From: Longimicrobiales bacterium
Lineage (GTDB): Bacteria; Gemmatimonadota; Gemmatimonadetes; Longimicrobiales; Gaopeijiaceae
DNA: 64,000 nt
Reading direction: 5' to 3'
NCBI GenBank assembly: GCA_963664435.2
Contig: CAXXKM010000002.1
Span: 448,001 to 512,000 of the forward strand
Shown here: positions 15,858 to 62,883 of the stretch, in pieces
Position numbering within the stretch: position 1 is the first letter of the stretch
Layout of the letters: every line of letters starts with the position of its first letter
Notes under the pieces: model-generated
The model's database searches: none
What the model was told of the DNA's origin: nothing
What the model saw: only the letters and a program-made list of their open reading frames with translations
Position numbers and translations under genes: made by a program

Positions 15858-15874
15858 GGAATGGAGTACCCACT

Positions 15875-15888
15875 ACCGGTAGTAAGGA
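15875..15888 (+). repeat. Putative attL core
   Basis: ACCGGTAGTAAGGA, overlapping the palindrome ACTACCGGTAGT (15872-15883), 17 bp after the peptidase stop. Confidence 0.7.
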
Positions 15889-15941
15889 ACTCCCGATTCG
15901 TGTTCTTGTTGCGAGCGTTTGACTTACGGGATTTCTAGATC

Positions 15942-15967
15942 CGATTCCCGCTGTTCGATTCCCGCTG
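15942..15967 (+). repeat. Tandem putative integrase arm-binding sites (CGATTCCCGCTG x2)
   Basis: Exact 12-bp direct repeats at 15942-15953 and 15956-15967. A related copy is at 29553-29565. Confidence 0.65.
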
Positions 15968-15973
15968 ATCGGA

Positions 15974-17140
15974 TCAGGCGCCAACCGTGCGGGGACGGCT
16001 GTCCAGAGCCGTCCGGAGTTGTACCTCGTCGGTGTGCTGATAGCACCGCAGGACGGTTCGGGCTTCCTTCCAGCCGCCGAGATCGCAAAGCACCTTGAGC
16101 GGCAGGTCCATCAAGTCGGACGCGAACTTCCGCCTGAGCGAGTGCCAGCCTCTCCCGCGCTTGGGCTCCAACCCGGCCCGCCGCTCGGCGGTCTTCCACC
16201 AAGTGCTCACCCGCGAGCGGCTCACGCATGTCGACGGATCCCGCGGCGCGGGCAGAACCGGCGCGTCTCCGGCTCCGCGAGCATGCCTCCGCGCCTCCTC
16301 CAAGGCAGTGATCGTCTCGTTGGTCACGGGCGTCCAGTGCTCGTATCCGGTCTTCTCGTGCTCGGCCCGCCAAAGAATGGTCCTGCCCTCGAATTTGATG
16401 TCGGACCACCGCAGCTTCCGGATGGCACCGATCCGGTGCCCGGTCTCGTGGGCGAGCACGAGCGCCACGTGGAAGCGCCAACCCACCTGCTTGGACACCT
16501 TCAGGAGTGCCTCGTATTCCTCGTCGGAAAGCACGACCCGGGTGGGGTTCTTCATCTTCGGCCTCCCGAGACCCTTCAGCGGGTTGAATCCGATGAGCAA
16601 ACTTCCGTGCTCATCTCTCGACTTGGCGGCCCAGTTGAGGATCGCGATCAGGATCTTCAGGTCGAGTGCGATGGTGCTGTCGGATGCGGGCTTGCCACTC
16701 GGTCCGATCCTGCCCGCGCGCCGCTCCCGGATGAACCGGTCCCAGTCGCGCCGGGAAAGCGTCTCGGGCCTTCGGTCGCGCCCGAGGAAGTCGAGGAACA
16801 TCCGCATCACGGCCCGGTTCTGGCGCTGGGTCCGCCTCTGCTTCGTCGGGACCACCTCCTCACCGTAGATTTCAAAAAGCTTTTCCAGGGTGAGTGGCTC
16901 GGACGCGGCTTCGGCCTTGCTGTTGGGCTCGTGAACCGCTAACCCCGCAGCGGCCTCGTCGGCCTGCCGCTTTGCCCGCGACCAGTCGCGGTGCTTGAGG
17001 GACCGGGTGAGCCTGCGCCCGTTCTCTCGCCACTCGATCTGGTAAAGGCCGGTCTTCGGGTCGGGGAAGATCCTCACCCGGTTGCGGCCCCACTCGCCGG
17101 CGCTGTAACTCCGCCGGCCACGTTTAGTGCGTGCCATCAT
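15974..17140 (-). CDS. Tyrosine recombinase/integrase
   Basis: Catalytic set ETGHR, HEKTG, HSLRR, LGGW, RCYQ. GGAGG RBS before ATG ATG. Confidence 0.92.
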   Translation of the reverse strand: MMARTKRGRRSYSAGEWGRNRVRIFPDPKTGLYQIEWRENGRRLTRSLKHRDWSRAKRQADEAAAGLAVHEPNSKAEAASEPLTLEKLFEIYGEEVVPTKQRRTQRQNRAVMRMFLDFLGRDRRPETLSRRDWDRFIRERRAGRIGPSGKPASDSTIALDLKILIAILNWAAKSRDEHGSLLIGFNPLKGLGRPKMKNPTRVVLSDEEYEALLKVSKQVGWRFHVALVLAHETGHRIGAIRKLRWSDIKFEGRTILWRAEHEKTGYEHWTPVTNETITALEEARRHARGAGDAPVLPAPRDPSTCVSRSRVSTWWKTAERRAGLEPKRGRGWHSLRRKFASDLMDLPLKVLCDLGGWKEARTVLRCYQHTDEVQLRTALDSRPRTVGA

Positions 17141-17232
17141 TCGATTCCTCCGATGATGGACCGCACGATCTGCGCGTCCGAAACCTCGCGGAGGGGCGTT
17201 GCCCGCGCCAGATCGAGCCCTGCCCGTAGCCA

Positions 17233-18828
17233 TCAGCGGCTCGGACCGTGATCGCGACCGCGGCTCCGCCCGCGCTGGCTCAGCGCTGCTATCATCATCA
17301 CAAGGTCGCGGCGAGCGTGCCGTACGACTCGGCTAAGCGTGTAACTTGCTCGTCCAGCCACTCGATTCGCCTTTGCAAGGCTGCGTTCTCCCCGCTCTGC
17401 CTCTCGACGTGCTGCCGCAAGGCGTCGTTCTCCTCGCTTTGCCGCTCGACGCGCCCGCGCAAGGCTTCGACGTGCTGCCTCAAGCCGTCGACCTGCCCGG
17501 AGTGCCGCCGCTGCTCCGTCTCGTACTGCGCGGACAATCTCTTCAAAGCCTCCGTCAACTGCCGTTCCAACTCGCTCATACAGTTCCCTCACTCTCTCGA
17601 CAGCTTCAACGCCCGACGATCCCCGTCCACCCACCACCAGGGCGGATCGGCCAGCACCTCGTCCGGCACCACCACGAACCGCTCGCCCTTGATCTCGCGG
17701 AACACGAGCCCCCAGGTGTCCTCCTCCATTTGGGCCAGTGTCCGCCGGGCGTCCTCGATGTCCCGGCCCAGTTCGGCGCGGGTCTCGATCCGGTCCTGGA
17801 TGCTCATCGACAGCCAGCGCATCGTCGCCCAGCTTCCGCCGAAGAAACCGATCCAAAGGCTCAGGCCTACGATCAGGGGCCGTTGCCACGCCTTGACCAG
17901 CAGCTGGCGCATCCTCCCGGCCGCCTCCTCCGTATCGCGCTCGATGGAACGCAGCGCGTTCCTCGCGGCGCGCCGCGAGTTCTCGCCGAGCCTTTCGAGC
18001 TCGCTCGCGGTCAACTCCTCGACCTCCCGTCTCTCGCTCTCCAGCCTCCTCCGCAGCCGCTCGGTCAAATCGTTCGCGGTCGAAGTTCTCTCCATACAGT
18101 TCTCCTTTCAGCCGCCACCGGTCGCCGGTCTCGGGATCCAGCGCGGTCAGGTAGTCCTTGCCTTGGCGCGGCACTTCTAGGCCCGCCTCCCGAAGGGCGG
18201 CGACGACATCGGCCCGGTTCCGCGCCGTGCCGTGCTCGACGCGCTGGAGCAGGTAGTCCCGGATCAGGTCGCGAGGGGAGGCTTCGAGCCGGAGCCCGGC
18301 CCGCAGTCGGGTCGCTTCGATGTAGGCGCGGTGGCCGGGTTGCTGCACCCTGGCCCGCGCCGGATCGTCCGGGCGAGCCCAGCCGTGTTCGTGGTTGAAG
18401 GCGTCCCGGAGCGGGCCGAAGGTCTTCTCCCAGCCCGGCGGGGCAATGTTGAGGCTCCGGCCGGTCTCCAGGTCGCACCGCGCGGCGAGGACGTGGACGT
18501 GCGCGCCGCCGCCGCGCTCGCGGTGCAGCACGGCGGTCCAAGCGTATCGGTCGGGCTCCAGTCCCGCCCAGGCCGTGTCCTCGAAGGCGTCCACGACCGC
18601 CTCGATCTCGGCGTCGGTCGGTTCGTCCTCCGGCGCCCATGCGATCACGCCGGACGTGTACCTGTGCTCGAACGCCAGCGTGTCGGCGACGGCGGCCACC
18701 TGGTTCGGATCGCCCCGAAGGACCTCGACGCCCTCGCGCGGCTTCCCGGCGGCGTCCCGCTCGCCGAGGAGGTAGCCAGCCGCCTTGCCGGCCGATCCGG
18801 TCCCGTGCGCCAGAAACTTAATCAGCAT
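17233..18828 (-). CDS. mobA: ColE1-type relaxase (MbeA/MobA-like)
   Basis: MLIKFLAHGTGS..A..YLLG, VLRGDP, YTSGV, VLHRE....HVH, DLETGRSLN and RLKG.LY motifs. Confidence 0.88.
   Translation of the reverse strand: MLIKFLAHGTGSAGKAAGYLLGERDAAGKPREGVEVLRGDPNQVAAVADTLAFEHRYTSGVIAWAPEDEPTDAEIEAVVDAFEDTAWAGLEPDRYAWTAVLHRERGGGAHVHVLAARCDLETGRSLNIAPPGWEKTFGPLRDAFNHEHGWARPDDPARARVQQPGHRAYIEATRLRAGLRLEASPRDLIRDYLLQRVEHGTARNRADVVAALREAGLEVPRQGKDYLTALDPETGDRWRLKGELYGENFDRERFDRAAAEEAGERETGGRGVDRERARKARRELAARREERAAFHRARYGGGGREDAPAAGQGVATAPDRRPEPLDRFLRRKLGDDALAVDEHPGPDRDPRRTGPGHRGRPADTGPNGGGHLGARVPRDQGRAVRGGAGRGAGRSALVVGGRGSSGVEAVERVRELYERVGTAVDGGFEEIVRAVRDGAAAALRAGRRLEAARRSLARARRAAKRGERRLAAARREAERGERSLAKANRVAGRASYTLSRVVRHARRDLVMMIAALSQRGRSRGRDHGPSR
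17298..17579 (-). CDS. mbeD: MbeD/MobD-like protein nested in the relaxase gene (alternative frame)
   Basis: MSELERQLTEALKRL resembles the MbeD N-terminus; coiled coil; ColE1-like nested position. Confidence 0.7.
   Translation of the reverse strand: MSELERQLTEALKRLSAQYETEQRRHSGQVDGLRQHVEALRGRVERQSEENDALRQHVERQSGENAALQRRIEWLDEQVTRLAESYGTLAATL
17589..18095 (-). CDS. mbeB: MbeB-like mobilization protein nested in the relaxase gene (alternative frame)
   Basis: Coiled coil, central TM segment and C-terminal TWG.......GERFVVVP; ColE1-like nested position. Confidence 0.7.
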   Translation of the reverse strand: MERTSTANDLTERLRRRLESERREVEELTASELERLGENSRRAARNALRSIERDTEEAAGRMRQLLVKAWQRPLIVGLSLWIGFFGGSWATMRWLSMSIQDRIETRAELGRDIEDARRTLAQMEEDTWGLVFREIKGERFVVVPDEVLADPPWWWVDGDRRALKLSRE

Positions 18829-19155
18829 CGGAATCCGGGCCTTCGGCGGGGGACAGTGCCGCGAGCGCCCGCCTGATGGCGACGAGGTGGCCGATCACCT
18901 CGACCGCCTCGATGGCCCCCCGGTGGGTGTTCGCCACCGGGCGATCTGGTTGACGTTGTTCCCGATCCGCGCCACTTGCTGGACGCGCTCGCGCTCGACC
19001 TCGGCGTGCGCCACGGTCCACGTGCGCGTCCGGCCCACCGACCGGCGCACCAGATCCGACAGCGTGAGGCCCGCGGCGCGCGCCTTGGCGTGCCACTCGG
19101 CACGCTCCGCCTCGCTGGCGCGAACCTTCACCCAAACGGCGCGTCCGGCGCTCAT
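18818..19155 (-). pseudogene. mobC: MobC/MbeC relaxosome protein with a 1-bp frameshift near 18934
   Basis: RHH-like N-terminus and ARIGNNVNQIARW. The expected continuation ANTH...EVIGHLVAI is in another frame (one G missing from TGG GCG). The stop overlaps the relaxase start. Confidence 0.82.
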
Positions 19156-19174
19156 GGCGCGCCGTTTCCGTTGC

Positions 19175-19260
19175 GGGGGTCTGAGGGGGCAAGGCCCCCC
19201 GCCAGCCTCTCCTGGGGACACGCGAAGTGTGGCCACGGAGAGTATGCTGGCTTGTCCTCC
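19175..19260 (+). promoter_or_regulatory. ColE1-like oriT, predicted nic between 19250 and 19251
   Basis: GGAGAGTATGCTGG^CTTG resembles ColE1 GGAGTGTATACTGG^CTTA. Preceded by a GGGGGC-AAG-GCCCCC hairpin, directly upstream of mobC. Confidence 0.75.
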
Positions 19261-19969
19261 TTAGCGGCGTCCAACGACCCCGTGGGCGACGTGTCCGAGA
19301 CCCGGCGGAGACCGCCGCCAATGCGGTGGCGGCGCACCACCGCACGCGCTCCGGGGAACCCGTTCAGACGGGCCTTGCCAAGCGCGGCCAACGGTGGGAT
19401 GGTGGCCAGCAATACCGCGCCATCCATGTACCCCCGAAGCCAAAGCGGCGACCGATCCCGCCAGTGTCCCTGGCGTGGGGCGCTGGCACCGGTTCCGCAG
19501 TGGGGTGTATCAACCTGACTACGTGCGTCTTCTCCGGTGTTTCGCCTCGTTTGCTCGTGCTGCCCTCCACGCTTCGGTGACCCGAAAGGCGACATACTAC
19601 GGAGTTCATCCGCGATTGGTTTCAATCCAATCGGCGGCGACGAAGGACCCCGAAGCCGAGCCGCGTCCACCTTCGGGGCTTCGGGGACGGGGCCATCGCC
19701 AAGGTCCGGGCCGGACGCCTTCATCACCAATGCCGTCGGGGACGGCGCGTCGGTGTCCACGAGGGAAGTGCCGACCCGCGTGCTGAACAGGTACTTCTGC
19801 GTCTCCATACCTGGAACGCTGAAGAGCCGCTCGCCGGCAAGTCAACCCGTCGAAAACCTCCTATTGGCCGATAACGTCCGGGGATGTCCGATAACGTAAA
19901 GTAGCCGGCGCCGGTCGTCGCCAACGGGGCGGAAAAACGCCCCCGTAACGCCGCCCGCGCTCCTCCGTC

Positions 19970-20460
19970 CGTCGCTTCGTATGCCAGCCGGAACGCGGTG
20001 TCCGCCAGCCACCGCCGGAAGTCCGGGTTGTCGGCGAAGAGCTTGAAGAGTTGCGTGTTGTCCCGCACCATCCCCAGCACCGCCCGCTCCGTCGCCTTGT
20101 CGGACTCGACGCGGGCGTTTTCCTGGTCGGAGTTCTGCCGGGCGTTCTCGAACCGGGCGACCTTCGCCACCGAGGCCGGAATGTCCTGCGTGGCCGTCCG
20201 GATGACCCTGTCGGGATCCCCCCACTCGATTCCGCCGAACCGATCGTTGAACTCCTCGATGATCGCCAACAGACGGCCCGTCTCGCTCTCGCCCTTGCCT
20301 CCGCCCTCGCCCGTCCTGACCGGATTGATCTCCGCGTCGTCGTCATTGAGGATGATCCTCCGCATCCGGTGCGTCTCGACGCGGTAGCTTTCCATTCGAT
20401 CCTCTCGGGGATGCGCTTCGACAGATCGGGCTCCTCAGGCCGGCGGAGGAGCTGGAACCG
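19970..20460 (-). pseudogene. hsdR: C-terminal remnant of a type I restriction endonuclease R subunit
   Basis: PEEPDLSKRI / MESYR (frameshift near 20396), IIEEFNDRFGGIEW, NSDQENARVE, QLFKLFADNPDFRRWL. No N-terminal part and no hsdM/hsdS. Confidence 0.75.
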
Positions 20461-20850
20461 GGCTCTTGGGGATACTCCACCGGTTTGGAGTACGCGCCGG
20501 ATCAGGGTGCGGGCGAGCTGGGGATCAGGGCTCCGGCTCGGGTGACAGCCCGGTGGGGACGGTTCTACGCCAACGCACATTCGGGATCGTGAGGACTGTG
20601 CGGACGAGGAGGTGACCGAGGCCATTCTCCCCACGGCACGCATACGGGAGAAATCAGGCTCCAGGTCTCCCACCTCGCGCCGAGGAGCGGCCCCGACCAG
20701 ACCTACCGGGCCGCCCCCTCTCCCACGGTGTACCTGCGGTCCGCGACGGGGATTGGATGCGACGATGGAGTCGCTTAGGTTTAGATCTTAGAGGTGGCGC
20801 GTCAGGTTCGTTTCCGCATCGTTCGCGAAGGGAGAGGGGGGTTTCAGCGC

Positions 20851-21453
20851 GTGACACCGCAAGTCGTTGACCTAGCGTTCCGCCTCACTGGTAGCGACCT
20901 GCCCACGGATCACGGGTACTTCCTTTTTGCCGCTATCTCGAAGAACCTAGCTCCTTTTCACGCGGCTTCCGGCTGGGGTGTCCATCCGGTTCGCGGCACA
21001 CCCTTGGGGAACGGCACGCTCGCCCTTTCCGAGTCCAGCCGCCTCGTGATGCGGTTGCCAGCCGACGATATCCGGCGCGCCATTTCTCTGGCAGGGAAAC
21101 GGTTGGACATCGGCGGTCGGACCGTTCGTGTGGGAGTGCCCGAGATTCGTCCTCTTCGGGCCGCTCGGCACCTGTTCTCGCGTCTTGTCACGATCAAGGG
21201 CTTCGCCGATGCGCCGGACGAGTTTGCCGAAGCGTGTACTCGGCAGCTTGAGACCCTGGCCGTGCGGGAGGCTCAAATGGGCGTGGATAAGCGGCGCGTG
21301 ATGGACGTCAAGGGATACACCATCGTCGGCTTTTCGGTTCGGCTTTCCGGCCTGAACGAGGGGGATTCGGTGCTTGTCCAAGAACGCGGGCTCGGTGGAA
21401 AACGGAAGATGGGTGCCGGGATCTTCGTACCGATTCGTCCCAAGCATGCCTGA
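20851..21453 (+). CDS. cas6: Cas6 (Myxan-type Cmx6)
   Basis: VDLAF..G..LPTDHGY.LFAAIS and C-terminal GLGGKRKMGAGIFVP. Confidence 0.92.
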   Translation: MTPQVVDLAFRLTGSDLPTDHGYFLFAAISKNLAPFHAASGWGVHPVRGTPLGNGTLALSESSRLVMRLPADDIRRAISLAGKRLDIGGRTVRVGVPEIRPLRAARHLFSRLVTIKGFADAPDEFAEACTRQLETLAVREAQMGVDKRRVMDVKGYTIVGFSVRLSGLNEGDSVLVQERGLGGKRKMGAGIFVPIRPKHA

Positions 21454-23677
21454 GGTGCCTGCTTTTCCAGTGCTGCTCGCGAAGTCCCGGGTTTCTGCAC
21501 AAGGCGAAGCCATTACGGTCGCCGACCATTGTGTGGAGGCGGCGGATTGCGCGGCAGCGATTGTCGAGGCGGCCGGCTCCAGGCTTGCGGCGTTTTTCGG
21601 GCTGGACGATTCGGACGAGGAGCGACTCGAGTCGCTCCTCCGCATCGCTGCGCTCATGCACGACCTGGGGAAGGCCGGAGCTTCATTCCAAGCCCAGATG
21701 CACGAGGCGGCGCGCGAGGCCCACCCGTTCAGGCACGAGGCGCTCTCGGTCGCCGTGTGCATGGATCCGGCGGGGCTTGGATGCTGGATCCGGCGAGCGA
21801 TTCCTGACGCTTGCGGTCGGGCGGCCGTGCTCGTTGCGGTGATGGGTCATCACGTCCGTGCGTCGCCGTCGGCACCCGCGGCGCGGACGCCGCGGGACGA
21901 GGTCGTGTACCTCGACCACCCCTCTCTCTCGTCCCTCTGGCAACATCTCGCGCGCCTTACCCGGGCCCAGCGGGTTCCCGAGCCGGAAAGACTCACCCTT
22001 CCGAGAGCCGCTTGGGAGGACCTGCTGTTCGAGTACGTCATGTTTGTCCGGGACGCCGTTCGCTCGGCGCCGCAGGCCGAGCGAGCGAGCCTGGTGTCGC
22101 TCGCCGCCTGCTGCAAGGCGGTTCTCGTCGCTGCGGATACGGTGGCGTCCGCGCGGATCAGCGGGCAGGATACTGCGGCCTTATGGGCCAAGACCGTTCT
22201 TCGCCGAGGCCTACAGTCGGACGAACTCGACCGAATCGTGGATGCGCGCCTCGGTGGACGGCCACCCTACCCCTTTCAGGAGAAGGTGGCCGCCTCCGAC
22301 GAGCGGGTGACTCTCGTTGAAGCCGGATGCGGGAACGGGAAGACTCTTGCCGCCTACATGTGGGCCCGACGAAGTGCCGTCGGTCGTCGCCTCGTGTTCT
22401 GCTATCCGACGACAGGCACGACTTCGGCCGGGTTTCAGGACTACCTCCTCGCCCAGACCGAACTCGAGCGCGCCCTCATGCACGGCCGCGCGTCGGCCGA
22501 CATCGAGCACATCCTCGATAATGGCGCAGCGTATGAGGATGATTCGCTTTGGGTCGCCGACGTGCTGGACCTCTGGGGAACGAAAGTGGTGGCGTGTACG
22601 GTGGATTCGGTTCTCTCGCTACTGGCTTGCTGGCGTCGTGCCCTCGCTGCCGCTCCCGTCTTCGCGCAATCGGCGTTCGTGTTCGACGAAGTGCATAGCT
22701 ACGACGATCAACTCTTCGGCGCTTTTCTCGCGTTTCTTCGCTGGACCCGAGCATCCTGCCTCGTGATGACGGCGAGCCTGTCCGACGCGCGAAGGGCCGC
22801 GATCGAAAAAGCGTACGGGAGACCGCTCCAGCCGATCGGGGGAGAACCCACCATGGAGGATGCGGAGCGCTACCGCATCGCACGTGTGCACCCAGAAGAA
22901 GTTGCCGAGTGGGTCGAGAAGTCCCGCAAGAGCGGGGGCAAGGTCCTGTACGTCGCCAATACGGTCGCGCGTGCGCTCGTGGCATTCAACCGTTTCGGAA
23001 CCCGCTGGAGCCCTGACGCTCGGCTCTATCACAGCCGCTTCAGGTATGAGGATCGAGTACGGGTCCAGGGAGAAGTGCTGGAGCTCTTTCGGAGGCGCGG
23101 CCCGGCCTTTGTCGCTGCCACGCAGGTCTGCGAGATGTCCCTTGACATCAGTGCCACCCTCCTCATCTCGGAGCTGGCGCCATTTCCTGCGCTCGTGCAG
23201 CGGCTGGGCCGCCTGAACCGGCGCGCTCGCGAGCCGGTGGCAGTCTGCCCAGCTCTCATCGTCGAGCCCCCGGACCCGCAACCCTACGACAAGGAGGCGC
23301 TGTCGGTGGCGGACCGGAAGCTCGTGTCCCTGGATGGCCAATCGTCATCGCAGCGCGATCTCGCGCGTGCGCTGGCCGGGATGCCGGACGGACCGTACGA
23401 GGACCGCATCATGCCCCTGCTCAGCCCATTCGACCTCGCCGGGACTCAGCCCGGAATGTTGCGCGACGGCTCGGTGTCGATGCCGGTGGTTCGGGAAGAG
23501 GACCTTCCATGTTCGCGGAAACGCATCACGCGAGCCGAACTAGTTCGGCTCACGATTCCGATGCTTCTGCCGAAGGACCATGATGTAAGACGCTGGCCCC
23601 GCCTGCGGGGGACGATCGTGGCACCCGCCGGGAGCATCGACTACGATCCGGTAAGGGGTGCGCGATGGCGGAACTAA
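21446..23677 (+). CDS. cas3: Cas3 HD nuclease-helicase
   Basis: LLAKS, MHDLGKA, GHH, AGCGNGKT, FDEVH, MTAS, YHSRF and QRLGRLNR motifs. Confidence 0.95.
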   Translation: MPEVPAFPVLLAKSRVSAQGEAITVADHCVEAADCAAAIVEAAGSRLAAFFGLDDSDEERLESLLRIAALMHDLGKAGASFQAQMHEAAREAHPFRHEALSVAVCMDPAGLGCWIRRAIPDACGRAAVLVAVMGHHVRASPSAPAARTPRDEVVYLDHPSLSSLWQHLARLTRAQRVPEPERLTLPRAAWEDLLFEYVMFVRDAVRSAPQAERASLVSLAACCKAVLVAADTVASARISGQDTAALWAKTVLRRGLQSDELDRIVDARLGGRPPYPFQEKVAASDERVTLVEAGCGNGKTLAAYMWARRSAVGRRLVFCYPTTGTTSAGFQDYLLAQTELERALMHGRASADIEHILDNGAAYEDDSLWVADVLDLWGTKVVACTVDSVLSLLACWRRALAAAPVFAQSAFVFDEVHSYDDQLFGAFLAFLRWTRASCLVMTASLSDARRAAIEKAYGRPLQPIGGEPTMEDAERYRIARVHPEEVAEWVEKSRKSGGKVLYVANTVARALVAFNRFGTRWSPDARLYHSRFRYEDRVRVQGEVLELFRRRGPAFVAATQVCEMSLDISATLLISELAPFPALVQRLGRLNRRAREPVAVCPALIVEPPDPQPYDKEALSVADRKLVSLDGQSSSQRDLARALAGMPDGPYEDRIMPLLSPFDLAGTQPGMLRDGSVSMPVVREEDLPCSRKRITRAELVRLTIPMLLPKDHDVRRWPRLRGTIVAPAGSIDYDPVRGARWRN

Positions 23678-25263
23678 CTTGGTCTGTCACAGCGCCCGGC
23701 CTCAACGCCCTCGAGCGCTGCGGCCTCGGAGCGATGGCCGCCACGATCGATGCCGCGGATCAGGAGGGGTTCGACCTGACGCCGCTCGACGCATCGTTCG
23801 ATCACGATTCCGTTATGCTCAGCTGGCCCGACGACTATCGGCCCAGCGCAGCACTCGCGAAGCTCATCAGGTTCGCTTGGCAGGCTCGGCAATCCACGAG
23901 CCCCGACGGCCTCGGGGTGCTCTACCTTCCGGCGATCCACCGGGGCTCCGCCAGCGATTCCTATCTGGAGCGCTTGCTTGAGAACAGCGGCATCCTCCGG
24001 ACGTTTCTCCAACATCCGCGAATCCAACCGAAGACCCGTCCGCCGACACGACAGACGATTGAGTTGGAGGGAGCGCGCTCAATCGAAGTCCGTTTCGTGG
24101 AGCCCAGCACGAACCTCAAGTACGTCTCTGACTTCTCGGGCAAGCTCTTCGGCGGGACAGGTAACCTCAAAGCACGCGTCGACCTCGCGCAGTACATCAT
24201 GCCGGGGGGGACCGCACGACACGGCGGCGAGGAGTCTTGGACCGGTTCGGCCATCCAGGCCGTTCCTCTTTTCTTCGCGCCGATCGGTTGCTTCTTCCTT
24301 AGGGCACAGGAGTCCTCCTGGGTGGTCGTGGTGCCTGATGTCACCGACCTGGCGGCGTTCGCATCAGTGCGGCCGCTCGTAGGCATCGGCTGGAAGGAGG
24401 CGGAGGTTCGAAGCCTAGAGGACGCCGGACTCCGGGTCGCCGTCGCTTATCGGACCCAAACTACGACGCGCCGTCTCGCCCTCAGAGGATTCGAGGTGTT
24501 GAGGGTGGGTCGTGTGGCTTGGAACAAGCAGCAGAGCGTCCGCTCGCACTTCTGTCGGTTGCGGCCCGGCATGAAGGAGTTGGACGAGTTCGAAACGGTG
24601 CTCCGACACCTGTCGAACCGATACTGCACCCGGAAGGACGGAGAGGGCGACTTCGTTTCAGTGCCGACGCCACGAGGGAGGATCGCGGCCAACCTCGTGC
24701 ACGGCCACTACTGGTACCGCTCCCTGTTCGACATCCCGAAGGAAGACCGCGAGGAAGTGAAGAACCTGAGCCGAAGAAACGAGTCGGAAGAACGAGCCTG
24801 GTTCCGACTCGTCGGCTACGAACGAAGAGCACTGACTGCTATCGCAGAGGAGTTGCCGATGGACGCTGATCGAGAGTTGGACCGGCTGTTCCAACACGCC
24901 ATCCATGAGGCGATGGCGCGCCGGTTCAGGCAAGAAGCAGAGTACGCGAAGCGCGGTGCGAGGTCGATCCAGGACCGATGGGACGACTTTCGCGAGTCCT
25001 CCCGGCGACTGTTATCGAGATCAAATACCCGCTCCACGCTCCGGACGGCGATCGCGGGGTTCTTCGCGGAGGCCGGAGGTAGCCGAACGCTTCGGGAGAA
25101 CGCTCAGGCCATCTGGGCCTTCATAGATTCGCCCGCCACGTGGCGCCGGGCTCGGGATCTCGCCCTGTTCTCGGTAGTGACCTACCAGCGCAAGGCGGAT
25201 CCGGAAGAGGGCGAAGCAGAAAAGGGTGAGGGAGAGGTTGGGGATGTCGAGCAGAGCGATTGA
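23665..25263 (+). CDS. cas8a1: Large subunit Cas8a1/Cmx1 (DevT-like)
   Basis: N-terminal PGL.ALERCGLGAMA, PGG..RH, LFFAPIGC and GRVAWNKQQ motifs; position between cas3 and cas7. Confidence 0.8.
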   Translation: MAELTWSVTAPGLNALERCGLGAMAATIDAADQEGFDLTPLDASFDHDSVMLSWPDDYRPSAALAKLIRFAWQARQSTSPDGLGVLYLPAIHRGSASDSYLERLLENSGILRTFLQHPRIQPKTRPPTRQTIELEGARSIEVRFVEPSTNLKYVSDFSGKLFGGTGNLKARVDLAQYIMPGGTARHGGEESWTGSAIQAVPLFFAPIGCFFLRAQESSWVVVVPDVTDLAAFASVRPLVGIGWKEAEVRSLEDAGLRVAVAYRTQTTTRRLALRGFEVLRVGRVAWNKQQSVRSHFCRLRPGMKELDEFETVLRHLSNRYCTRKDGEGDFVSVPTPRGRIAANLVHGHYWYRSLFDIPKEDREEVKNLSRRNESEERAWFRLVGYERRALTAIAEELPMDADRELDRLFQHAIHEAMARRFRQEAEYAKRGARSIQDRWDDFRESSRRLLSRSNTRSTLRTAIAGFFAEAGGSRTLRENAQAIWAFIDSPATWRRARDLALFSVVTYQRKADPEEGEAEKGEGEVGDVEQSD

Positions 25264-25304
25264 AACCAGGGCGAACTGAATTCAAACCAGAGCGGAGATC
25301 TACC

Positions 25305-26174
25305 ATGGCCCACCATCTCTTCGGAACGGTCCTCACGCCTCACGGCATTGCTTCGAACAATCGGGGCGAGTCAGCGGGCAACGTGACCACGTTGCAGAAG
25401 GTCATCAAGGACGATGGACTTTTCACGACTGTGAGCGCGGAGGCGATTCGCTATGCGATTCGCGAAGCGTTCACCGAGGGCGGCAAGGTCGTGAATCGGA
25501 GGATAACTTCCGGCGGGAGTGACTGGAGGGACCCGAAGTTCGAGAACTGGCAGGCGCATCTGGACGACGACCTGCTCGGCTTCATGCTCCCCGACAAGGA
25601 GACCGTGAAGCGTCGCGGTCGACTGGAAATCAGCCGCGCTTTGAGCACACGTCCGTGGCCGGGCGACGTGGTCTTCAATGCCGCCGCGGTCGGAGCGCAG
25701 TCATCGGGCAATCCCAAACGGTCATCGGGGAACCCCAATCCGATGCCCTACGGGACCGAGATTCACGCGACGCGCTATCAATACTCCTTCGCCCTCACGC
25801 CCGAGACTCTCGAGGATCGCGCGCGGGCCATTGACGCCCTAGAGAGCATACGAGATCTTCGCCGGGTGGCGGGCAACCACAGCCGGTATCTCTACGATTT
25901 TTCGCCCGACGCAGTCGTCCTGCGCTGGACGCATGACCCGGCTCCACGGCTAATGTATTGCTTCGAGCAGGATGAGCTCGGCACGATCACTGCCGATTCG
26001 CTCCTCTCGCGTGTCGGCTCCGGCGACATCGATGCGAGCGAAGTGGTGGTTGGAGGTCCTGCGGCTCTTGCTCTACGGGACCGCCTCACCGCTGCGGGCA
26101 GTCATTTCGCGGAAGGTGTGAAGGACGCCTTTCAAGAAATCGAGGCAAGACTGCGGCGTCACCTGGGACTCTAG
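25305..26174 (+). CDS. cas7: Cas7 (DevR-like)
   Basis: ASNNRGE..GN.TTLQK, TVSAEAIRYA, DDDLLGFM, EIHATRYQY and VAGNHSRYLYDFSP motifs. Confidence 0.93.
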   Translation: MAHHLFGTVLTPHGIASNNRGESAGNVTTLQKVIKDDGLFTTVSAEAIRYAIREAFTEGGKVVNRRITSGGSDWRDPKFENWQAHLDDDLLGFMLPDKETVKRRGRLEISRALSTRPWPGDVVFNAAAVGAQSSGNPKRSSGNPNPMPYGTEIHATRYQYSFALTPETLEDRARAIDALESIRDLRRVAGNHSRYLYDFSPDAVVLRWTHDPAPRLMYCFEQDELGTITADSLLSRVGSGDIDASEVVVGGPAALALRDRLTAAGSHFAEGVKDAFQEIEARLRRHLGL

Positions 26175-26176
26175 AG

Positions 26177-26800
26177 GTGGACGGGGTTGTGGTCAGCGCG
26201 TCCGTGCCGGTCGCCTCATTTCGTCCGTATCTGTCGAGGGATTACCAGGACACGTACCCGGCTCCTCCGCCAGCCACGGTGTTCGGCATGCTGCTCTCCC
26301 TCTGCGGCATCACGGAGGCGGCTCGCTCCGACTACGGAGGGACCGAACTCGCGATCATGGTGGATCGCGTTCGCGAGCCGTCCAGAGTGCTCAGGAAGCT
26401 CCGCCGGGATCCCGCTTCGCATAGGGGGCGCGGAATCGCAAAATACCGGCCCGACTACCAAGAACTGATCCTCGGACTTCGAGCGTGGATCGCAGTGCGG
26501 CAAGGTGACGCCGCTAGTGACCTCCCGGATTGTGTCCGGGACGCCTTGGAGCACCCCGAAAGCTTGGACCGCTACGGGGCGCTTTCGCTTGGCGAGAGCA
26601 CGTTCCTAGTCGACGAGATCGCAGTCTGCGACTCCCCGCCAGCAGGCGGCACCGTTCTCCACCCGGACGATACCGGATCGCTTACTCTTCCCGTCTGGGT
26701 CGACTACAAAGACCCATCGGCGACCAGGCTTCAACGATTCGGCCTCGTGGAGCGCCCCCTCGCAGAGGAGGACTATGTCCAAGTCGGACCGGGAGCCTGA
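26177..26800 (+). CDS. cas5: Cas5 (DevS-like)
   Basis: VPVASFR...RDY..TYP.PPPATVFGMLLSL, RYG.LSLGES and LPVWVD motifs. Confidence 0.92.
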   Translation: MDGVVVSASVPVASFRPYLSRDYQDTYPAPPPATVFGMLLSLCGITEAARSDYGGTELAIMVDRVREPSRVLRKLRRDPASHRGRGIAKYRPDYQELILGLRAWIAVRQGDAASDLPDCVRDALEHPESLDRYGALSLGESTFLVDEIAVCDSPPAGGTVLHPDDTGSLTLPVWVDYKDPSATRLQRFGLVERPLAEEDYVQVGPGA

Positions 26801-28448
26801 CAGAAGAGGAAGCGGCGCCCTCGGGCTCCGATCGAATCCGACCGAGGATTCGCTCGACTTGGTGCCCGTAATGGCTCTTCACGCCCTCGCCTACTGCCCC
26901 CGCCTCTTCTACCTCGAGAACGTCGAAGGACAGCGTGTGGCCAACGCCAGGGTGTACGCTGGCCGCGAGCTTCACTCCTCACTCGAGCACAAGCACGAAG
27001 ACTCTCTGCACGTCGTCTCCTCCCGATTGGGGCTGCAGGGACGCGTCGATTTCATTCGGTCTGACAGGGAAGAGTTGATCCCTGTCGAGGTCAAGCGCGG
27101 GAGGGCGAAACGAACCGACACCGGACTCACTGGATGGCCATCTGACGTACTCCAAGTGGGTGCGTATGCCATGCTTTTGGAGGAATCTCTGGAAACCGCC
27201 GTTGGGCATGCACGCATCCACTACGCGCGTGATCGCGCTTGGGTTCACGTGGAGGTTACGGATGACCTCCGCCGCGACGTACAAGACGCAGTGGATGAGG
27301 CCAAGAGGCTCAGCGCGTCCTCACGACGCCCTCCGGTGGCCGAAAACGAGAACCTCTGCAAGCATTGCAGTCTCTCCGTGGTATGTTTGCCGGACGAGGA
27401 AAGGTTGGTCGAAAATCGGACGTTGCCGGCCCCGCCGGATGATGACCGTCAGGTGGTTCACGTCACCGACCCGGGATCGCGGATCGGGAAGTCTGCGCTG
27501 TGTCTCAGGGTTCGAGCGGTCGGTGGGAGCGTCACGGATCTTCCCATTGCGCAGGTTCACTCGGTCGTGCTGCACGGTAACGTCCAACTCACGTCGCAAG
27601 CTATCCGACTCTGCGTGCAACGTGGTGTAGGCGTGCACTGGTTGACCGGGAGTGGACGCTATCTCGGTTCGCTCGCAGCGTCCGTGGGGAATCCCACGCG
27701 TCGGATCCGCCAGTACGAGGCGCTACTGGACGCAGACACTCGCCTCAGACTGGTTCTCGCTCTCGTTTCGGCCCGGATCTGGAACCAATACCGCTACCTG
27801 CTGAGAGCCTCGCGCGGCAAGGAGCAACTCCGCGCGAACGTGCAGCCGTTCCTTCGGGAACTTCGGACTGCGACGCACCGTCTCAATCGGCAGTCCAACG
27901 TGGACTCGATCAGAGGGATCGAGGGGGCGGCCGGTCGAGCGTACCACGGCGGATTGAGGAAGCTCATACAGCCCCCGGAGTTCGCGTCTCAACGAAGGAC
28001 GCGACGACCAGCCCAGGATCCCTTCAATGCTCTTTTGAACTACTCGTATTCGCTCCTGCTGGCGAGGATTGCCAATGCCGTCGTGGCCTGTGGCATCGAC
28101 CCGCATCTAGGGTTCTACCACACGGATCGCTCGACGGCCCCACCGCTGACGCTGGACTTGATGGAACTGTTTCGCGTGCCCTTGTGCGACGTGGCGATTC
28201 TCGGTGCGATCAACCGACGTACCTGGCGGCTGAGTGACTTTGATTGTTCGGATCTCGGCGTGCGCCTGTCACGCCACGTCCGGACCCAGGTGATCGAGTT
28301 GTTCGAACGGCGGCTTGACGCCTCATGGAAGCATCCAGCCACACGCCACTCGCTGCCCTACCGAAAGGTGATCGAGTTGGAAGTCCAGCTACTGGAGAAG
28401 GAGTGGTCTGGATCAGAGGGTCAGTTCGCCCAAGCGAGGTTGCGATGA
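26775..28448 (+). CDS. cas1: Cas4-Cas1 fusion (start uncertain)
   Basis: Cas4: YCPR, PVEVKRG, C..CSL..C. Cas1: RGIEG, DPFNALLNY.Y, LGFYH, LDLMELFR. Confidence 0.93.
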   Translation: MSKSDREPDRRGSGALGLRSNPTEDSLDLVPVMALHALAYCPRLFYLENVEGQRVANARVYAGRELHSSLEHKHEDSLHVVSSRLGLQGRVDFIRSDREELIPVEVKRGRAKRTDTGLTGWPSDVLQVGAYAMLLEESLETAVGHARIHYARDRAWVHVEVTDDLRRDVQDAVDEAKRLSASSRRPPVAENENLCKHCSLSVVCLPDEERLVENRTLPAPPDDDRQVVHVTDPGSRIGKSALCLRVRAVGGSVTDLPIAQVHSVVLHGNVQLTSQAIRLCVQRGVGVHWLTGSGRYLGSLAASVGNPTRRIRQYEALLDADTRLRLVLALVSARIWNQYRYLLRASRGKEQLRANVQPFLRELRTATHRLNRQSNVDSIRGIEGAAGRAYHGGLRKLIQPPEFASQRRTRRPAQDPFNALLNYSYSLLLARIANAVVACGIDPHLGFYHTDRSTAPPLTLDLMELFRVPLCDVAILGAINRRTWRLSDFDCSDLGVRLSRHVRTQVIELFERRLDASWKHPATRHSLPYRKVIELEVQLLEKEWSGSEGQFAQARLR

Positions 28449-28771
28449 GCGGTCGTGCCGTTCCACCAAAAGGTGCGGGACGGTGGTACTTGGTCTGCTA
28501 TGACGTTCGTGATCCGAAACGCCTTCGACGGGTTGCAAGGATGCTTGAGGGGCACGGGGAGCGCATCCAATACTCCGTCTTTCGATGCTGGTTGTCGGCA
28601 TCTGGACTCGAACGACTCCGCTGGGAGTTAACGGAAGACTGTGTGGCCCAAGAAGATGACGTGATCTTCATTCCGCTCTGCTCACGTTGCGTCGCAGGGA
28701 TCAGAGTCACTCACAGTGCTCTCAAGGAGGGCTCGTGGGAGACACAACGGGGGCGGGTTCGGATTCTGTAG
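28445..28771 (+). CDS. cas2: Cas2
   Basis: WYLVCYDVRDPKRLRRV and RIQYSVF motifs. Confidence 0.93.
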   Translation: MSGRAVPPKGAGRWYLVCYDVRDPKRLRRVARMLEGHGERIQYSVFRCWLSASGLERLRWELTEDCVAQEDDVIFIPLCSRCVAGIRVTHSALKEGSWETQRGRVRIL

Positions 28772-28891
28772 TCTCGTGATTCAAGCATCGGGGGGGTACG
28801 GCAAACAAGGTCGCTTTTTGACAACAAGGAAACGGGGGTCCATGAAAAACTCCCTGCAAGAACGCTTGCCGCTTACCTTTACAGAGGAGCG
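28772..28891 (+). promoter_or_regulatory. Putative CRISPR leader of array 1
   Basis: AT-richer 120-bp gap between cas2 and the first repeat. Repeat polarity (hairpin then 8-nt TTGAGCAC handle) implies plus-strand transcription. Confidence 0.6.
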
Positions 28892-29428
28892 GTGAGAACC
28901 GCTTTGATGCCGGAAGGCGTTGAGCACAGGCTTGCCGAGGTCACGCGCGAGGAGATGGATCGCGTGAGAACCGCTTTGATGCCGGAAGGCGTTGAGCACT
29001 GGGAGCGCGTGCGCACCTCTGCCGGAGCGCTGCTGGTGAGAACCGCTTTGATGCCGGAAGGCGTTGAGCACTGAGAGGCGAGTGCTGGAGCGCGCAGGAC
29101 GGGCGCTGTGAGAACCGCTTTGATGCCGGAAGGCGTTGAGCACAAGTGCAGTTCGTTGGTGCCGTTCCGGAACGCGGCGTGAGAACCGCTTTGATGCCGG
29201 AAGGCGTTGAGCACACCATCACCGGCGGCTGCGTGGCTGGCGAGTACGAAGTGAGAACCGCTTTGATGCCGGAAGGCGTTGAGCACAACGTGAGGATGTA
29301 CTCGTGAGCCTTGGCCGTCCGGGTGAGAACCGCTTTGATGCCGGAAGGCGTTGAGCACTAGAAGGCGCCGAAATTGCGCAGCACGACCCGGTGTGAGAAC
29401 CGCTTTGATGCCGGAAGGCGTTGAGCAC
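28892..29428 (+). CRISPR. CRISPR array 1: 8 identical 36-bp repeats GTGAGAACCGCTTTGATGCCGGAAGGCGTTGAGCAC and 7 spacers (34-36 bp)
   Basis: Repeats start at 28892, 28964, 29036, 29108, 29179, 29251, 29323 and 29393. Confidence 0.98.
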
Positions 29429-29552
29429 TACATAGACTGACCCCGTTTTCCGCCGTCGCTCCTACCAATGCCGTGGCGCTCGGGGGTTGGGGGTATTGCG
29501 TGTCTGGGGCTCTGGCGGACACCCTGAACCGACAGGTCCAAGAGAGGAACGG

Positions 29553-29706
29553 GATTCCCGCAGTTTGAGGCGATTTCCCTGCTGTTTCTGGACGACGAGA
29601 GCAGATGCGATTCAAGGGCAGAAAGCGCAGATCGTGCAGCCCTGTAAGTAGTTAGACGATTCGTTGCCCTGATTCGCGCTATTCTCAACCTGACCGGTAG
29701 TAGGGA
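29553..29706 (+). repeat. Putative attR: arm-like GATTCCCGCAGTT (29553-29565) and core ACCGGTAGTAGGGA (29693-29706)
   Basis: 12/13 match to the left arm motif and 13/14 match to the left core. CCTGTAAGT (29641-29649) is an inverted near-copy of ACTTACGGG (15922-15930). Confidence 0.68.
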
Positions 29707-29757
29707 TGAGGAGGCAGGGAATCCTTGACAGGCTGTGGGCGTTTGCCTCTCTTGTAT

Positions 29758-29771
29758 GTGCAATATTGCAC
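29758..29771. promoter_or_regulatory. Perfect 14-bp palindrome GTGCAATATTGCAC, likely antitoxin operator
   Basis: Lies 10 bp upstream of the antitoxin ATG; TTGACA at 29725-29730. Confidence 0.6.
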
Positions 29772-29781
29772 TGGAGAGCGA

Positions 29782-30213
29782 ATGACCACACAGGCCCTGG
29801 CTGAACATCTTGGGGGGCGGCAAGCTCTCGGCCGTGACATCCGGTCCGACCTCGACCTGGACGATGCGGTCCGGGCCGGGCTTCCCGTCAAAGCCGTTGA
29901 GACCGTGGTGAAGAACGGTGCTCTGCGCGCAACCGAACTTCATGCACTGGTCATCCCACGGCGTACGCTTGCCCACAGGAAGCGCCAGGGGAAGCGGCTG
30001 AGCAGCGAGCAGTCGGACCGCCTCACCCGGGTGGTCCGCGTCGTGGCCTCGGCGGAAGAAGCCATCGGCGACGGTGGAAAGGCAAGACGCTGGCTACGCA
30101 AGCCCAACCGTGCCCTCCAGGGACGGCGGCCACTGGATCTCCTGGCCAGCGATGTAGGCGCCCGCCTTGTGGAACAGGTGCTGGGGCGCATCGAGCATGG
30201 GCTGGGCGCGTAG
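29782..30213 (+). CDS. Xre/MbcA/ParS-type antitoxin
   Basis: IPRRTLAHRK...LS.EQSDRL.R, WL.KPNRAL.G..PLDLL and GRIEHG motifs. Confidence 0.9.
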   Translation: MTTQALAEHLGGRQALGRDIRSDLDLDDAVRAGLPVKAVETVVKNGALRATELHALVIPRRTLAHRKRQGKRLSSEQSDRLTRVVRVVASAEEAIGDGGKARRWLRKPNRALQGRRPLDLLASDVGARLVEQVLGRIEHGLGA

Positions 30214-30249
30214 CGCCAAGGCCACGCTCCCGGACACGCGGAATCGCGC

Positions 30250-30705
30250 TTGGAACTCTGGCGGATCTCCCGCAAAGCCTACGCGGCCCTGGATGGCGAT
30301 GGGGCCCGCCTCTACGGGGCACGGTGGACTCCTCGCGGAACGCCCGCCGTCTACGCGGCTTCCCACCTCTCACTGGCAGCCCTGGAATACCTGGTGCACA
30401 TCGACACGGAAGACGCACCAGACGATCTGGTGGCTCTCCGCATAAGCGTTCCGGACGATGTGACCGAACTGGCCTACGCGCCTGCCTCTCTGCCCGCCGA
30501 TTGGCAGCAGACTCCGTCACCGCCCCAATGCCAGGCGATCGGTAGCGAGTGGGCCAGGAGGCGGGAGGAGCTGCTACTACGAATTCCATCCGTGCTCGTT
30601 CCCGAAGAGAGCAACGTGCTCGTGAATCCGATGCATCCGGACGCCGTCGGGGTCCGGGTCATCGGGTCTCGTCCCTTCTCCTACGATGTCCGATTGTTGA
30701 CCTGA
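30250..30705 (+). CDS. RES-domain toxin
   Basis: WRIS, G.GARLYGARW, VY.AS.LSLA.LEYLVH, IPSVLVP and N.LVNP.HPD motifs. Confidence 0.9.
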   Translation: MELWRISRKAYAALDGDGARLYGARWTPRGTPAVYAASHLSLAALEYLVHIDTEDAPDDLVALRISVPDDVTELAYAPASLPADWQQTPSPPQCQAIGSEWARRREELLLRIPSVLVPEESNVLVNPMHPDAVGVRVIGSRPFSYDVRLLT

Positions 30706-49677: not shown

Positions 49678-49681
49678 GGAG

Positions 49682-49725
49682 GTAATGTAATCACTCATGT
49701 GATGATGCTCAACCACTTACATTAC
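49682..49725. promoter_or_regulatory. Inverted repeat GTAATGTAA...TTACATTAC upstream of the AAA gene
   Basis: Arms at 49682-49690 and 49717-49725. Confidence 0.5.
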
Positions 49726-52585: not shown

Positions 52586-52796
52586 ACACCCTGTCCTAAC
52601 TGCTTGCCCAATCCAGGCTTGCCGCGCGATTCGCGAGAGGTGCGGCGATTCAGACTCGCCGTACCCGATTCTGGGTTCTTTGACCTGGGTTGTCAAACAG
52701 CCAACTCCATGTGGGAGCGCCGGTAACGCGAAACGCGAGCGCTCCCGCAGATTCCGGAAGCACCGCAGCGCTCGCAGGGAGTCCGGCACCCAACCG
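52586..52796 (-). promoter_or_regulatory. Putative leader of array 2
   Basis: Lies between the cas2 stop and the first intact repeat; contains inverted GCGAGCGCT/AGCGCTCGC motifs. Confidence 0.6.
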
Positions 52797-53090
52797 TCAC
52801 ACGATTGTAGCCTGTCGTTTCGGTGCTTCATAGCCCTTCCCCAAGCTTTCGACCCGGACATCCACCTTGTCCGCAGGCCCGAGATCCACGATGAGTATAT
52901 GGTCCTCGGAGGGCTCGATCAATTCATCGAGACGCGCGGTCATCTCCGTCCGGCGCCGGGCCACGAGTCGGCATTGGAACACGGACAGCTGGAGCCAGTA
53001 GCCGAAGCCGTGCATCAGCCTGAACACCTTCCGCCACCGTTTGGGATCCGAGATGTCGTACGTCACGAGATACAGGCGTTCCTTGGCCAT
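52797..53090 (-). CDS. cas2: Cas2
   Basis: YLVTYDISDPKRW and LQLSVF motifs. Confidence 0.93.
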   Translation of the reverse strand: MAKERLYLVTYDISDPKRWRKVFRLMHGFGYWLQLSVFQCRLVARRRTEMTARLDELIEPSEDHILIVDLGPADKVDVRVESLGKGYEAPKRQATIV

Positions 53091-53097
53091 TCTCAGT

Positions 53098-54810: not shown

Positions 54811-54824
54811 GAGATCGGTTCCGG

Positions 54825-56285: not shown

Positions 56286-56289
56286 TCAA

Positions 56290-57397: not shown

Positions 57398-57407
57398 TTG
57401 GCGGTTA

Positions 57408-62865: not shown

Positions 62866-62883
62866 GGTATTGGCCCTCGGGGC

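Follow-up and report, generated by a model that had tools for sequence, protein, structure and literature searches.

The 64-kb stretch of DNA analysed here (the window; positions 448,001 to 512,000 of contig CAXXKM010000002.1 of a Longimicrobiales bacterium) carries, integrated between core sites at 15875-15888 and 29693-29706, an element of 13.8 kb that is best explained as an integrative mobilizable element (IME) belonging to a large family with lambda-type integrases in sponge-type Gemmatimonadota; the defence slot of the element holds a complete Myxan-type I-B CRISPR-Cas system. A probability of about 0.8 is assigned to this reading. The limits of the element are marked at both ends, the empty site is found in congeners, the architecture of the ends is common to related elements, close relatives hold a restriction-modification (R-M) system in the same slot, the set of cas genes is complete and one spacer has a target with the protospacer-adjacent motif (PAM) of the subtype. 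The host is most likely a sponge-associated member of the Gemmatimonadota, since the titles of the nearest integrase loci name Longimicrobiales or Gemmatimonadota, and those sequencing runs that contain this DNA and name a habitat are sponge metagenomes.

Limits of the element and its target site

On the left, the element is preceded by a host gene for an M28 peptidase (13572..15857, + strand; Pfam Peptidase_M28, PA and TFR_dimer). The core ACCGGTAGTA(A/G)GGA begins 17 bp past the stop codon of this gene and recurs 264 bp past the last CRISPR repeat; these two are the only matches in the window at up to one mismatch (shuffle mean 0.00), and the only exact matches in the 4.5-Mb genome. This core had been proposed in an earlier, sequence-only reading of the window, along with arm motifs and an inverted pair of subterminal motifs, and all of them were recovered: GATTCCCGCWG lies at 15943, 15957 and 29553 on one strand (shuffle mean 0.20, largest 2), and ACTTACRGG at 15922 (+) and 29641-29649 (-), about 40 bp inside each core and in excess of shuffles. 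The left ACTTAC motif (15922..15930, +), a possible host-factor site, has a similar counterpart at the left ends of siblings, and the two tandem arm-type sites that follow it (GATTCCCGCTG, 15943..15967, +, spaced 14 bp) resemble pairs found after sibling integrases. The family right end (29479..29693) includes the arm-type site at 29553, a motif in common with the region upstream of int (about 29625-29640) and the inverted ACTTAC motif, and is 73-90% identical to sibling right ends.

The left crossover would lie within a host palindrome at 15876..15882, where the 7-bp overlap CCGGTAG is placed by the register of siblings and by the empty allele in congeners G001 and G005, and the right one at 29694..29700, homology to the empty locus of G005 beginning at 29693. 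In G001, the M28 gene (92% amino acid identity) is followed by two tandem palindromes and no insert; in G005, the last 88 bp of the M28 gene, two palindromes and an Xre-RES toxin-antitoxin pair follow one another, with 92% identity to the window across the 1013 bp that begin at 29693. In the window the same pair (29725..30705, +; NF049845, NF049844) is host DNA on the right flank, outside the element. Two further genomes (G006 and G009) have the M28 gene with neither palindrome nor element. The empty site that had been predicted in relatives does exist, with two tandem palindromes in place of the single unit expected. Both junctions, together with 8.6 kb of the cas module, are covered with 0 differences by same-strain short-read contigs of run X15, which may be the source sample.

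Of 18 congeners, 17 have the target palindrome (a reversed-pattern control gave 0-2 per strand), which is a dispersed intergenic repeat that occurs mostly as tandem pairs 20-21 bp apart. The palindrome has in this respect the dispersed intergenic pairs of repetitive extragenic palindromic (REP) elements; the RAYT (Y1) transposase PF01797, by which REP elements are also recognized, was not found in this genome (G000), the one searched for it.

Integrase and integrase family

The integrase (388 aa; 15974..17140, - strand; PF00589) is a lambda-like tyrosine recombinase with an N-terminal three-strand-plus-helix domain of the arm-binding type, and its residues R236, K263, H333, R336, W357 and Y367 are invariant in 33 of 33 aligned sequences. 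The structural model is of moderate confidence (predicted local distance difference test, pLDDT, 68.7), and its best Protein Data Bank (PDB) match is full-length lambda Int (E 1.9e-8), at a low template-modelling (TM) score of about 0.27; the single integrase sequence gave no match among PDB sequences. Beside it lies the 3′ stub, of 31 open codons, of a putative excisionase gene (17137..17232, -). The corresponding open reading frame (ORF) is intact (129-136 aa) in four siblings of the same genome that resemble integrative and conjugative elements (ICE), and its product gives a weak lead to helix-turn-helix (HTH) or excisionase proteins (ESM Atlas, HTH_17 clusters) and no Pfam or PHROG match. 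Such a stub is the norm for the members of the family that carry mobilization (mob) genes. A motif of about 18 bp at 17155-17175, at the 3′ end of the putative excisionase gene, recurs inverted at 29620-29640 in the family right end; it may be a protein-binding site or take part in antisense control. The nearest integrases insert directly beside this motif. A promoter scan of 15850-21000 returned 0 sigma-70 sites.

Integrase copies extending to the C-terminus number 27 in the genome (23 of them are full length), which also has 34 right-end motifs and ten loci with MobA. Relatives of the integrase in GTDB number at least 489 loci, the best 77 of which were surveyed with flanks of up to 10 kb: mobA directly adjoins int in 24 of them, and the same ends are also seen in many family members that lack mob genes. 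The core and arm architecture sought in integrase homologs is indeed found in the siblings, the arm motifs being common to them and the core sequence differing from element to element. Among correctly oriented end pairs in the genome, 18 of 26 share at least 7 bp, as against 86 of 892 other pairs, many of those 86 being real shared targets; with one off-register pair dropped from the register analysis, all of the remaining pairs (17/17) share a 7-mer, 12 of them in exactly the register of this element. The mean symmetry of the half-sites is 2.9/6 on the element side and 3.6/6 on the host side, compared with 1.69 ± 1.12 at random, and this element scores 4 and 4. The shared 7-mers, the common register and the symmetric half-sites in sibling end pairs place the putative crossover at CCGGTAG. 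As a first step in the proposed scheme, the N-terminal domain of the integrase would bind the arm repeats, and strands would be exchanged across CCGGTAG in the dispersed host palindrome.

Some further properties of the family were recorded on the way. Members are often nested in one another's integrase, mob or upstream genes (L235, L237, L238; C2:830937-843075). The cargo of siblings L075-L084 includes defence genes (type I R-M, type ISP, McrBC, GmrSD, Mrr and ApeA-like) and large surface proteins with leucine-rich repeat (LRR), fibronectin III, cadherin and Ig-like domains. Integrases at 73-76% identity occur in genomes titled Acidobacteriota and Gammaproteobacteria (L115, L118, L119, L130, L140, L141, L164), which reflects either cross-phylum transfer or misbinning. 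Elsewhere in the genome, 17 tRNA genes lie within less than 3 kb (C2:689401-692178), a cluster that would be typical of a large integrated element.

From restriction-modification to CRISPR-Cas in one cargo slot

Two gene remnants that the sequence-only reading did not list lie between the transfer origin (oriT) and cas6. The first is the 3′ end of hsdR, the gene of a type I restriction subunit (19964..20440, -), with 87% amino acid identity to the tail portions of complete HsdR proteins encoded in G011 and G227. Fused to it at the hsdR break is a decayed fragment of an unrelated gene (20445..20708, +), 76% identical in nucleotides to a long ORF in L163, which we take to be amidohydrolase-like. 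In G011 (L235), 90% identity to the window extends over 16398-20440 and is followed by full hsdR, hsdS and hsdM; the same R-M layout, together with the shared right end, is found in G249 (L237) and G227 (L238), and 13 of 29 loci with an hsdR tail adjoin the oriT/mob region. In another element of G011, the backbone (88% identical) is combined with an AbiE pair and an R-M system of a different kind. Relatives that lack the cas genes had been singled out as a check, different breakpoints being the outcome that would speak against a common element, and what they have is the same backbone and right end. The GC content of the cas module is 0.632, compared with 0.678 in the backbone and 0.689 and 0.721 in the flanks.

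Since cas-less relatives have type I R-M in the same slot, and only the hsdR tail is left here, the gene content indicates that the Myxan-type I-B CRISPR-Cas system replaced a type I R-M system. In a second step, which would have followed the existence of a type I R-M form of the element, illegitimate recombination would have brought in the cas cassette, between about 20440 and 29430-29479, along with a piece of a former neighbour gene. The closest copy of the cas genes (G353) is 78% identical, is truncated in cas4/1, belongs to another genus and is surrounded by insertion sequences, other integrases and mob remnants; a fragment of the cassette is found in G021, also of another genus. A further 25 Cas8 clusters are 65-89% identical, one of them labelled Gammaproteobacteria, and Cas8 was not found in the 10 genomes reached via integrase loci.

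The CRISPR-Cas system

The sequence-only reading had described a complete Myxan-type I system in the order cas6-3-8-7-5-4/1-2, and profile searches agree, all Cas proteins scoring above curated cut-offs and four of them with I-MYXAN models. All genes are on the + strand: cas6 (Cmx6; 20794..21453; TIGR02807, 180.7 bits, cut-off 98.85); cas3, with HD nuclease and helicase (21374..23677; TIGR01587 and TIGR01596 above cut-off; HD, Walker A and DEVH motifs), the true start of which is probably slightly downstream; cas8 (Cmx1/Cas8b; 23665..25263; TIGR03485 and TIGR03486 above cut-off); cas7 (DevR; 25260..26174; TIGR02585 above cut-off); cas5 (Cmx5/DevS; 26177..26800; TIGR02586 above cut-off); a cas4-cas1 fusion (26775..28448; TIGR03983 cas1_MYXAN, 366.8 bits, cut-off 358.05; TIGR00372 above cut-off); and cas2 (28445..28771; TIGR01573 above cut-off). 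Within cas8, a candidate internal start of a putative Cas11 of about 134 aa is found at 24859, where GAGGAG, similar to a ribosome-binding site, precedes M399. Cas8 had no sequence match among solved structures. The leader and array follow (28772..29428, +), with 8 identical 36-bp repeats from 28892 and 7 spacers of 34-36 bp.

For spacer 3 (29072-29107), a 35/36 match with ATG on the 5′ side is found in a fragment of a phage-portal gene in G017, and 34/36 matches with AGG in two shorter portal copies (in G017 and G007). The PAM measured for a Myxan I-B system is AYG, according to the available text of PMC11096372. An AYG motif is thus seen at one protospacer only, where an ATG is expected by chance at about 1/64 in what is a single event; a short decayed copy of the portal gene does not have the ATG. 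The portal fragment and its short decayed copy (L085 1248-2120 and 4530-4640; L086 at about 10800) lie on either side of a DNA methylase-like gene and an ORF of no recognised function, between pieces of mobD. The portal fragment has no relative in IMG/VR, and three other genomes of the family have longer ORFs at 39-43% identity to it. When all 7 spacers were probed by exact parts of 20-23 nt in IMG/VR, one match was obtained, for spacer 1, and it failed to extend (more than 9 mismatches); searches against GenBank phages gave chance-level matches only, and no spacer of the array matches this genome or the target site of the element. In a third step, the CRISPR system would acquire spacers and destroy phage DNA next to AYG PAMs. 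Taken jointly, site-specific integration, capture of the cas cassette and immunity are considered very likely.

The host has other CRISPR loci. A second CRISPR-Cas system, of type I-G, lies 21 kb away in the window (50658-64000), with Cas4g/1g, Cas3g, Csb2, Cas7g and 27 repeats; two of its ORFs resemble Csb2, three of its spacers are duplicated or nearly so, and no family end motifs were found near it. Adjoining its array, an ORF of 875 aa (47089-49716) gives a partial match, with a score far under the cut-off, to the NACHT antiphage protein EruA. At C3:1211000-1215400 there is a third array, with about 30 repeats, and its spacer 14 perfectly matches the chromosome of its own host at C2:517105-517139, about 5 kb beyond the window.

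Mobilization genes and candidate helpers

The mob genes, all on the - strand, are in the order mobC-mobA-mbeB-mbeD that the sequence-only reading had given, though two of its assignments need qualification: mobC is frameshifted, and the label mbeB is one of position. MobA (17233..18828; 531 aa; PF03432) is a relaxase of the MOBP type, with Y19 and a motif III of three histidines (H102, H110 and H112) rather than the HEN residues that we take to be those of ColE1 motif III; the same three histidines are found in the closest plasmid relaxases (Methylomarinovum, Citrobacter and Aeromonas pAsal1). MobA is 50-57% identical to relaxases of small plasmids, and its match to NF047848 MbeA has an E of 1e-23 with a score of 84 against a cut-off of 500. 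Nested in mobA are a gene similar to MbeD/MobD (17298..17579; PF04899, E 3.8e-7; NF033829 below cut-off) and a gene in the position of mbeB (17589..18095), 56-94% conserved in siblings, for which profile searches gave no family match. The mobC gene (18818..19155) has in this assembly a 1-bp frameshift near 18933, and encodes 86 aa compared with 112 aa in three siblings; intact sibling MobC matches PF05713 and PF21983. An assembly error is possible, because other ORFs of the assembly, e.g. a sibling mobA, are likewise broken by single frameshifts. Sibling contigs have one extra base at this place, and sibling copies swamp the position. An oriT-like region (19200..19290) contains, near 19247, a conserved CTGGCT motif that presumably corresponds to the nic site of ColE1. 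Among the regions examined, 8 of 10 from siblings and 3 of 3 from plasmids have this motif upstream of mobC.

The sequence-only reading recognised no replication genes and no type IV secretion system (T4SS) in the element, and none were recognised in profile searches of its proteins. The element has a relaxase, MobA, and an oriT-like motif without a T4SS of its own, and an intact integrase at one end with attachment sites at both, as IMEs do. Its bounds are set by integrase sites, as had been proposed. It had also been called self-contained, which is an overstatement, mobC being frameshifted in this assembly and the putative excisionase gene being reduced to a 31-codon stub. A complete MobC and an excisionase in cis, which are missing here owing to the frameshift and the stub, are not required by the IME definition in the available text of PMC10484663. 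Because of the mobC frameshift and the excisionase stub, and because no circle junction was found, the element looks, from its gene content, helper-dependent for both excision and transfer.

Candidate helpers are encoded in the same genome, where four ICE-like siblings have VirB2-, VirB4-, VirB9-, VirB10- and VirB6-like genes, a coupling protein, ArdC and an unbroken ORF for the putative excisionase, the set at C3:1153557-1168443 being uninterrupted. (Genome-wide searches with PF02534 and PF03135 had returned nothing; these were false negatives, VirB4-like and coupling-protein genes being matched by other profiles.) These siblings could supply excision and transfer functions. In a fourth step, excision would need the excisionase of a co-resident ICE-like sibling, MobA would nick oriT, with sibling MobC if the frameshift is real, and the VirB-type channel of the sibling would carry the strand. 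Mobility of the whole unit at present is given somewhat less than an even chance.

A wider picture may be drawn tentatively, and is judged rather unlikely as a whole: sponge Gemmatimonadota would harbour a network of dozens of kin elements with common arm sites and differing targets, in which ICE-like members supply excisionase and channel to mob-type riders. The present member would have moved to the host palindrome and swapped R-M for CRISPR-Cas, and its 13.8-kb cassette, still excisable, would be delivered by kin to relatives with the palindrome, possibly across phyla within the sponge.

Weight of the evidence and alternative readings

A number of observations speak against an IME that carries a working CRISPR-Cas system from host to host. 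As to the site, a single palindrome unit, interrupted by the element, is present in the window, as against two in each of the empty relatives, and a 20-bp unit is unaccounted for; no second element was found at the palindrome, 0 of 18 palindrome loci having end motifs nearby, and of 313 other genomes searched for one, a single genome gave a match, with 3 mismatches, that is not an element. The five nearest integrases use a different overlap, targeting a motif just upstream of sibling integrases. As to the cargo, cas genes are found in 0 of the 77 surveyed integrase loci, Cas7 matched 3 of 400 other genomes of the order and 0 of 15 congeners in the sample, and no family end motifs bracket the G353 copy of the cas genes within the 80 kb that were inspected. 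As to immunity, 6 of the 7 spacers are without a target, and the fragment targeted by spacer 3 sits between mobD pieces, i.e. in element-derived DNA. As to transfer, mobC is frameshifted, VirB4 of the ICE-like siblings is below its curated cut-off, and no VirB8, VirB11 or relaxase was recognised in their gene sets, so that their activity is unproven. Finally, the circle junction was not found in 15 of 23 joints from four assembled runs, the contigs of which drop rare forms, nor in JGI metagenomes; the two-unit empty site was not found in the latter either, and these metagenomes may therefore simply not contain the lineage. The single empty allele in the runs (an X15 contig of depth 4) is the two-unit form, which would not result from precise excision of this allele; a related lineage, and not excision, is thus its more likely origin.

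Two other observations come from the runs. Run X19 has a 97%-identical left end, starting at 15868, and almost no cover of the cas genes, though contigs cannot show absence. The contig depths of cas and flanks (33 vs 35-40 in X15; 42 vs 65-132 in X16) were not used, because contig depths give no share of cells.

Much of this agrees with a stranded element, i.e. one with genuine ends, in which the cas cassette arrived after integration and the whole unit never moved, so that it is now an ordinary chromosomal CRISPR locus. The frameshift in mobC and the reduction of the excisionase gene to a stub would be expected of such a remnant, as would the failure to find a circle junction, the single occurrence of the element (no second copy with cas genes was found among the genomes searched) and the setting of the G353 copy, which has insertion sequences and mob remnants around it but no ends that bracket it. 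Against this, the integrase, the relaxase, the oriT motif and both ends are intact, the stub is normal for mob-type members, which occupy many different sites, intact mobC copies at 96% identity and ICE-like siblings are present in the same genome, and the frameshift itself may be an error of the assembly. Stranding is given somewhat less than an even chance.

The palindrome could also have been used for its resemblance to the core site rather than as a dedicated attachment site, by an integrase with the relaxed, transposon-like target choice of Tn916 or Tn1549. The best 77 loci have about 45 different overlaps of 7 bp, and 11 loci with one and the same overlap have unrelated flanks; this element is the only one seen with the palindrome and the CCGGTAG overlap, and Tn1549 Int is also among the fold matches of its integrase. 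However, each of the 17 paired elements has one and the same 7-mer at its two ends, as is the case in homology-dependent, lambda-type exchange. Furthermore, overlap and core arm follow the integrase clades, and some members reside in tRNA genes with repeats of 18-31 bp. Relaxed target choice is on these grounds unlikely. The two siblings in tRNA-Pro and tRNA-Val genes (C3:41072-80460 and C3:1132029-1152340), with their repeats of 18-31 bp, have a different arm repeat.

An integrated ColE1-like plasmid, suggested by a mob operon and an oriT motif like those of small plasmids, was rejected as very improbable: the shared family ends largely refute it, no replication gene was recognised, mob is fused directly to int in 24 of 77 loci and the ends are the same in many members that lack mob. 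Integration guided by CRISPR-Cas, as in CRISPR-associated transposons, was likewise rejected, and its probability is next to nil: some Tn7-like elements do use I-B Cascades, yet here only co-location speaks for it, while Cas3, Cas1, Cas2 and Cas4 are all present, where loss of Cas3 would be expected, no Tns or TniQ genes were recognised, no spacer matches the genome or the target site, and 77 related integrase loci have no cas genes in their flanks, these cas-less relatives implying that integration is independent of Cascade.

Relation to known systems

CRISPR-Cas on excisable islands is not new as a concept. The present element, as an IME with a CRISPR-Cas cargo, shows, with traceable breakpoints, how an innate defence (type I R-M) is exchanged for an adaptive one (CRISPR-Cas with its acquisition genes); if mobile, it would offer a concrete route for the spread of CRISPR-Cas in sponge microbiomes, testable in E. 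coli. Its integrase family forms a natural series, 65-85% identical, with shared arm sites and dozens of 7-bp overlaps, that is useful for studying changes of integrase specificity. The family seems undescribed in print: no description of it, or of any mob-type IME that carries a Myxan I-B system, was found in a literature that was mostly open-access, the supplementary element lists of which may include the family, and the word ‘Gemmatimonad’ is absent from the main texts of PMC10484663 and PMC10201445, as available.

With lambda Int, which is among its best structural and profile matches, the integrase has in common the N-terminal three-strand-plus-helix domain, the tandem arm repeats and the 7-bp overlap between inverted half-sites; it differs in its low identity (16-18%), in the Trp at the second His position and in having dozens of paralogs with common arm sites but different overlaps. 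The mob region is like the ColE1 MOBP5/HEN module, in the available text of PMC9282650 and PMC8683028, in gene order, in the nested positions of mobB and mobD, in the conserved motif upstream of mobC and in the weak matches to MbeA and MbeD profiles, whereas it lies on the chromosome, is fused to an integrase gene and lacks a ColE1 replicon, and its relaxase has three histidines, not HEN, in motif III. The Myxan-type I-B system of Synechocystis PCC 6714, as far as presented in the available part of PMC11096372, has the same Cas8b (Cmx8), Cas7, Cas5, Cas6 and Cas3, a similar repeat-spacer unit of about 71-72 nt, an AYG PAM and a candidate internal Cas11, while here Cas4 and Cas1 are fused and the system is on an integrative element.

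Among CRISPR-Cas systems on mobile or integrated DNA, the nearest parallels are the Vibrio cholerae islands GI-24 (type I-E) and VPI-6 (type I-F), tyrosine-integrase islands of 17-29 kb with attL, attR and CRISPR-Cas, excision of which was demonstrated by PCR (PMC6360697, available text). The element resembles them in placing CRISPR-Cas on a tyrosine-integrase island with both attachment sites, and differs in Cas subtype and phylum; the available text of PMC6360697 describes the islands as non-self-mobilizing and names no relaxase, whereas a mobC-mobA/B/D operon, an oriT-like site and a family with 27 copies in one genome are found here. Complete type I-B cas sets with arrays are known from thaumarchaeal integrated elements (PMC6563490, as far as available), which have archaeal hosts, are larger and have spacers against other integrated elements, unlike the matched spacer here, the target of which is a phage-portal fragment; a partial I-C system has been found on a Mesorhizobium ICE (PMC8627217, in part). 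Anti-phage systems on genomic islands comprise Cas at 11.8% and R-M at 40.9%, in the available text of PMC10484663. With IMEs as a class (PMC10484663 and PMC10201445, likewise in part), the element shares an integrase and a relaxase, the lack of a T4SS and a cargo of defence genes, which is common among them; it stands apart in that a swap of R-M for CRISPR-Cas in one and the same slot can be traced.

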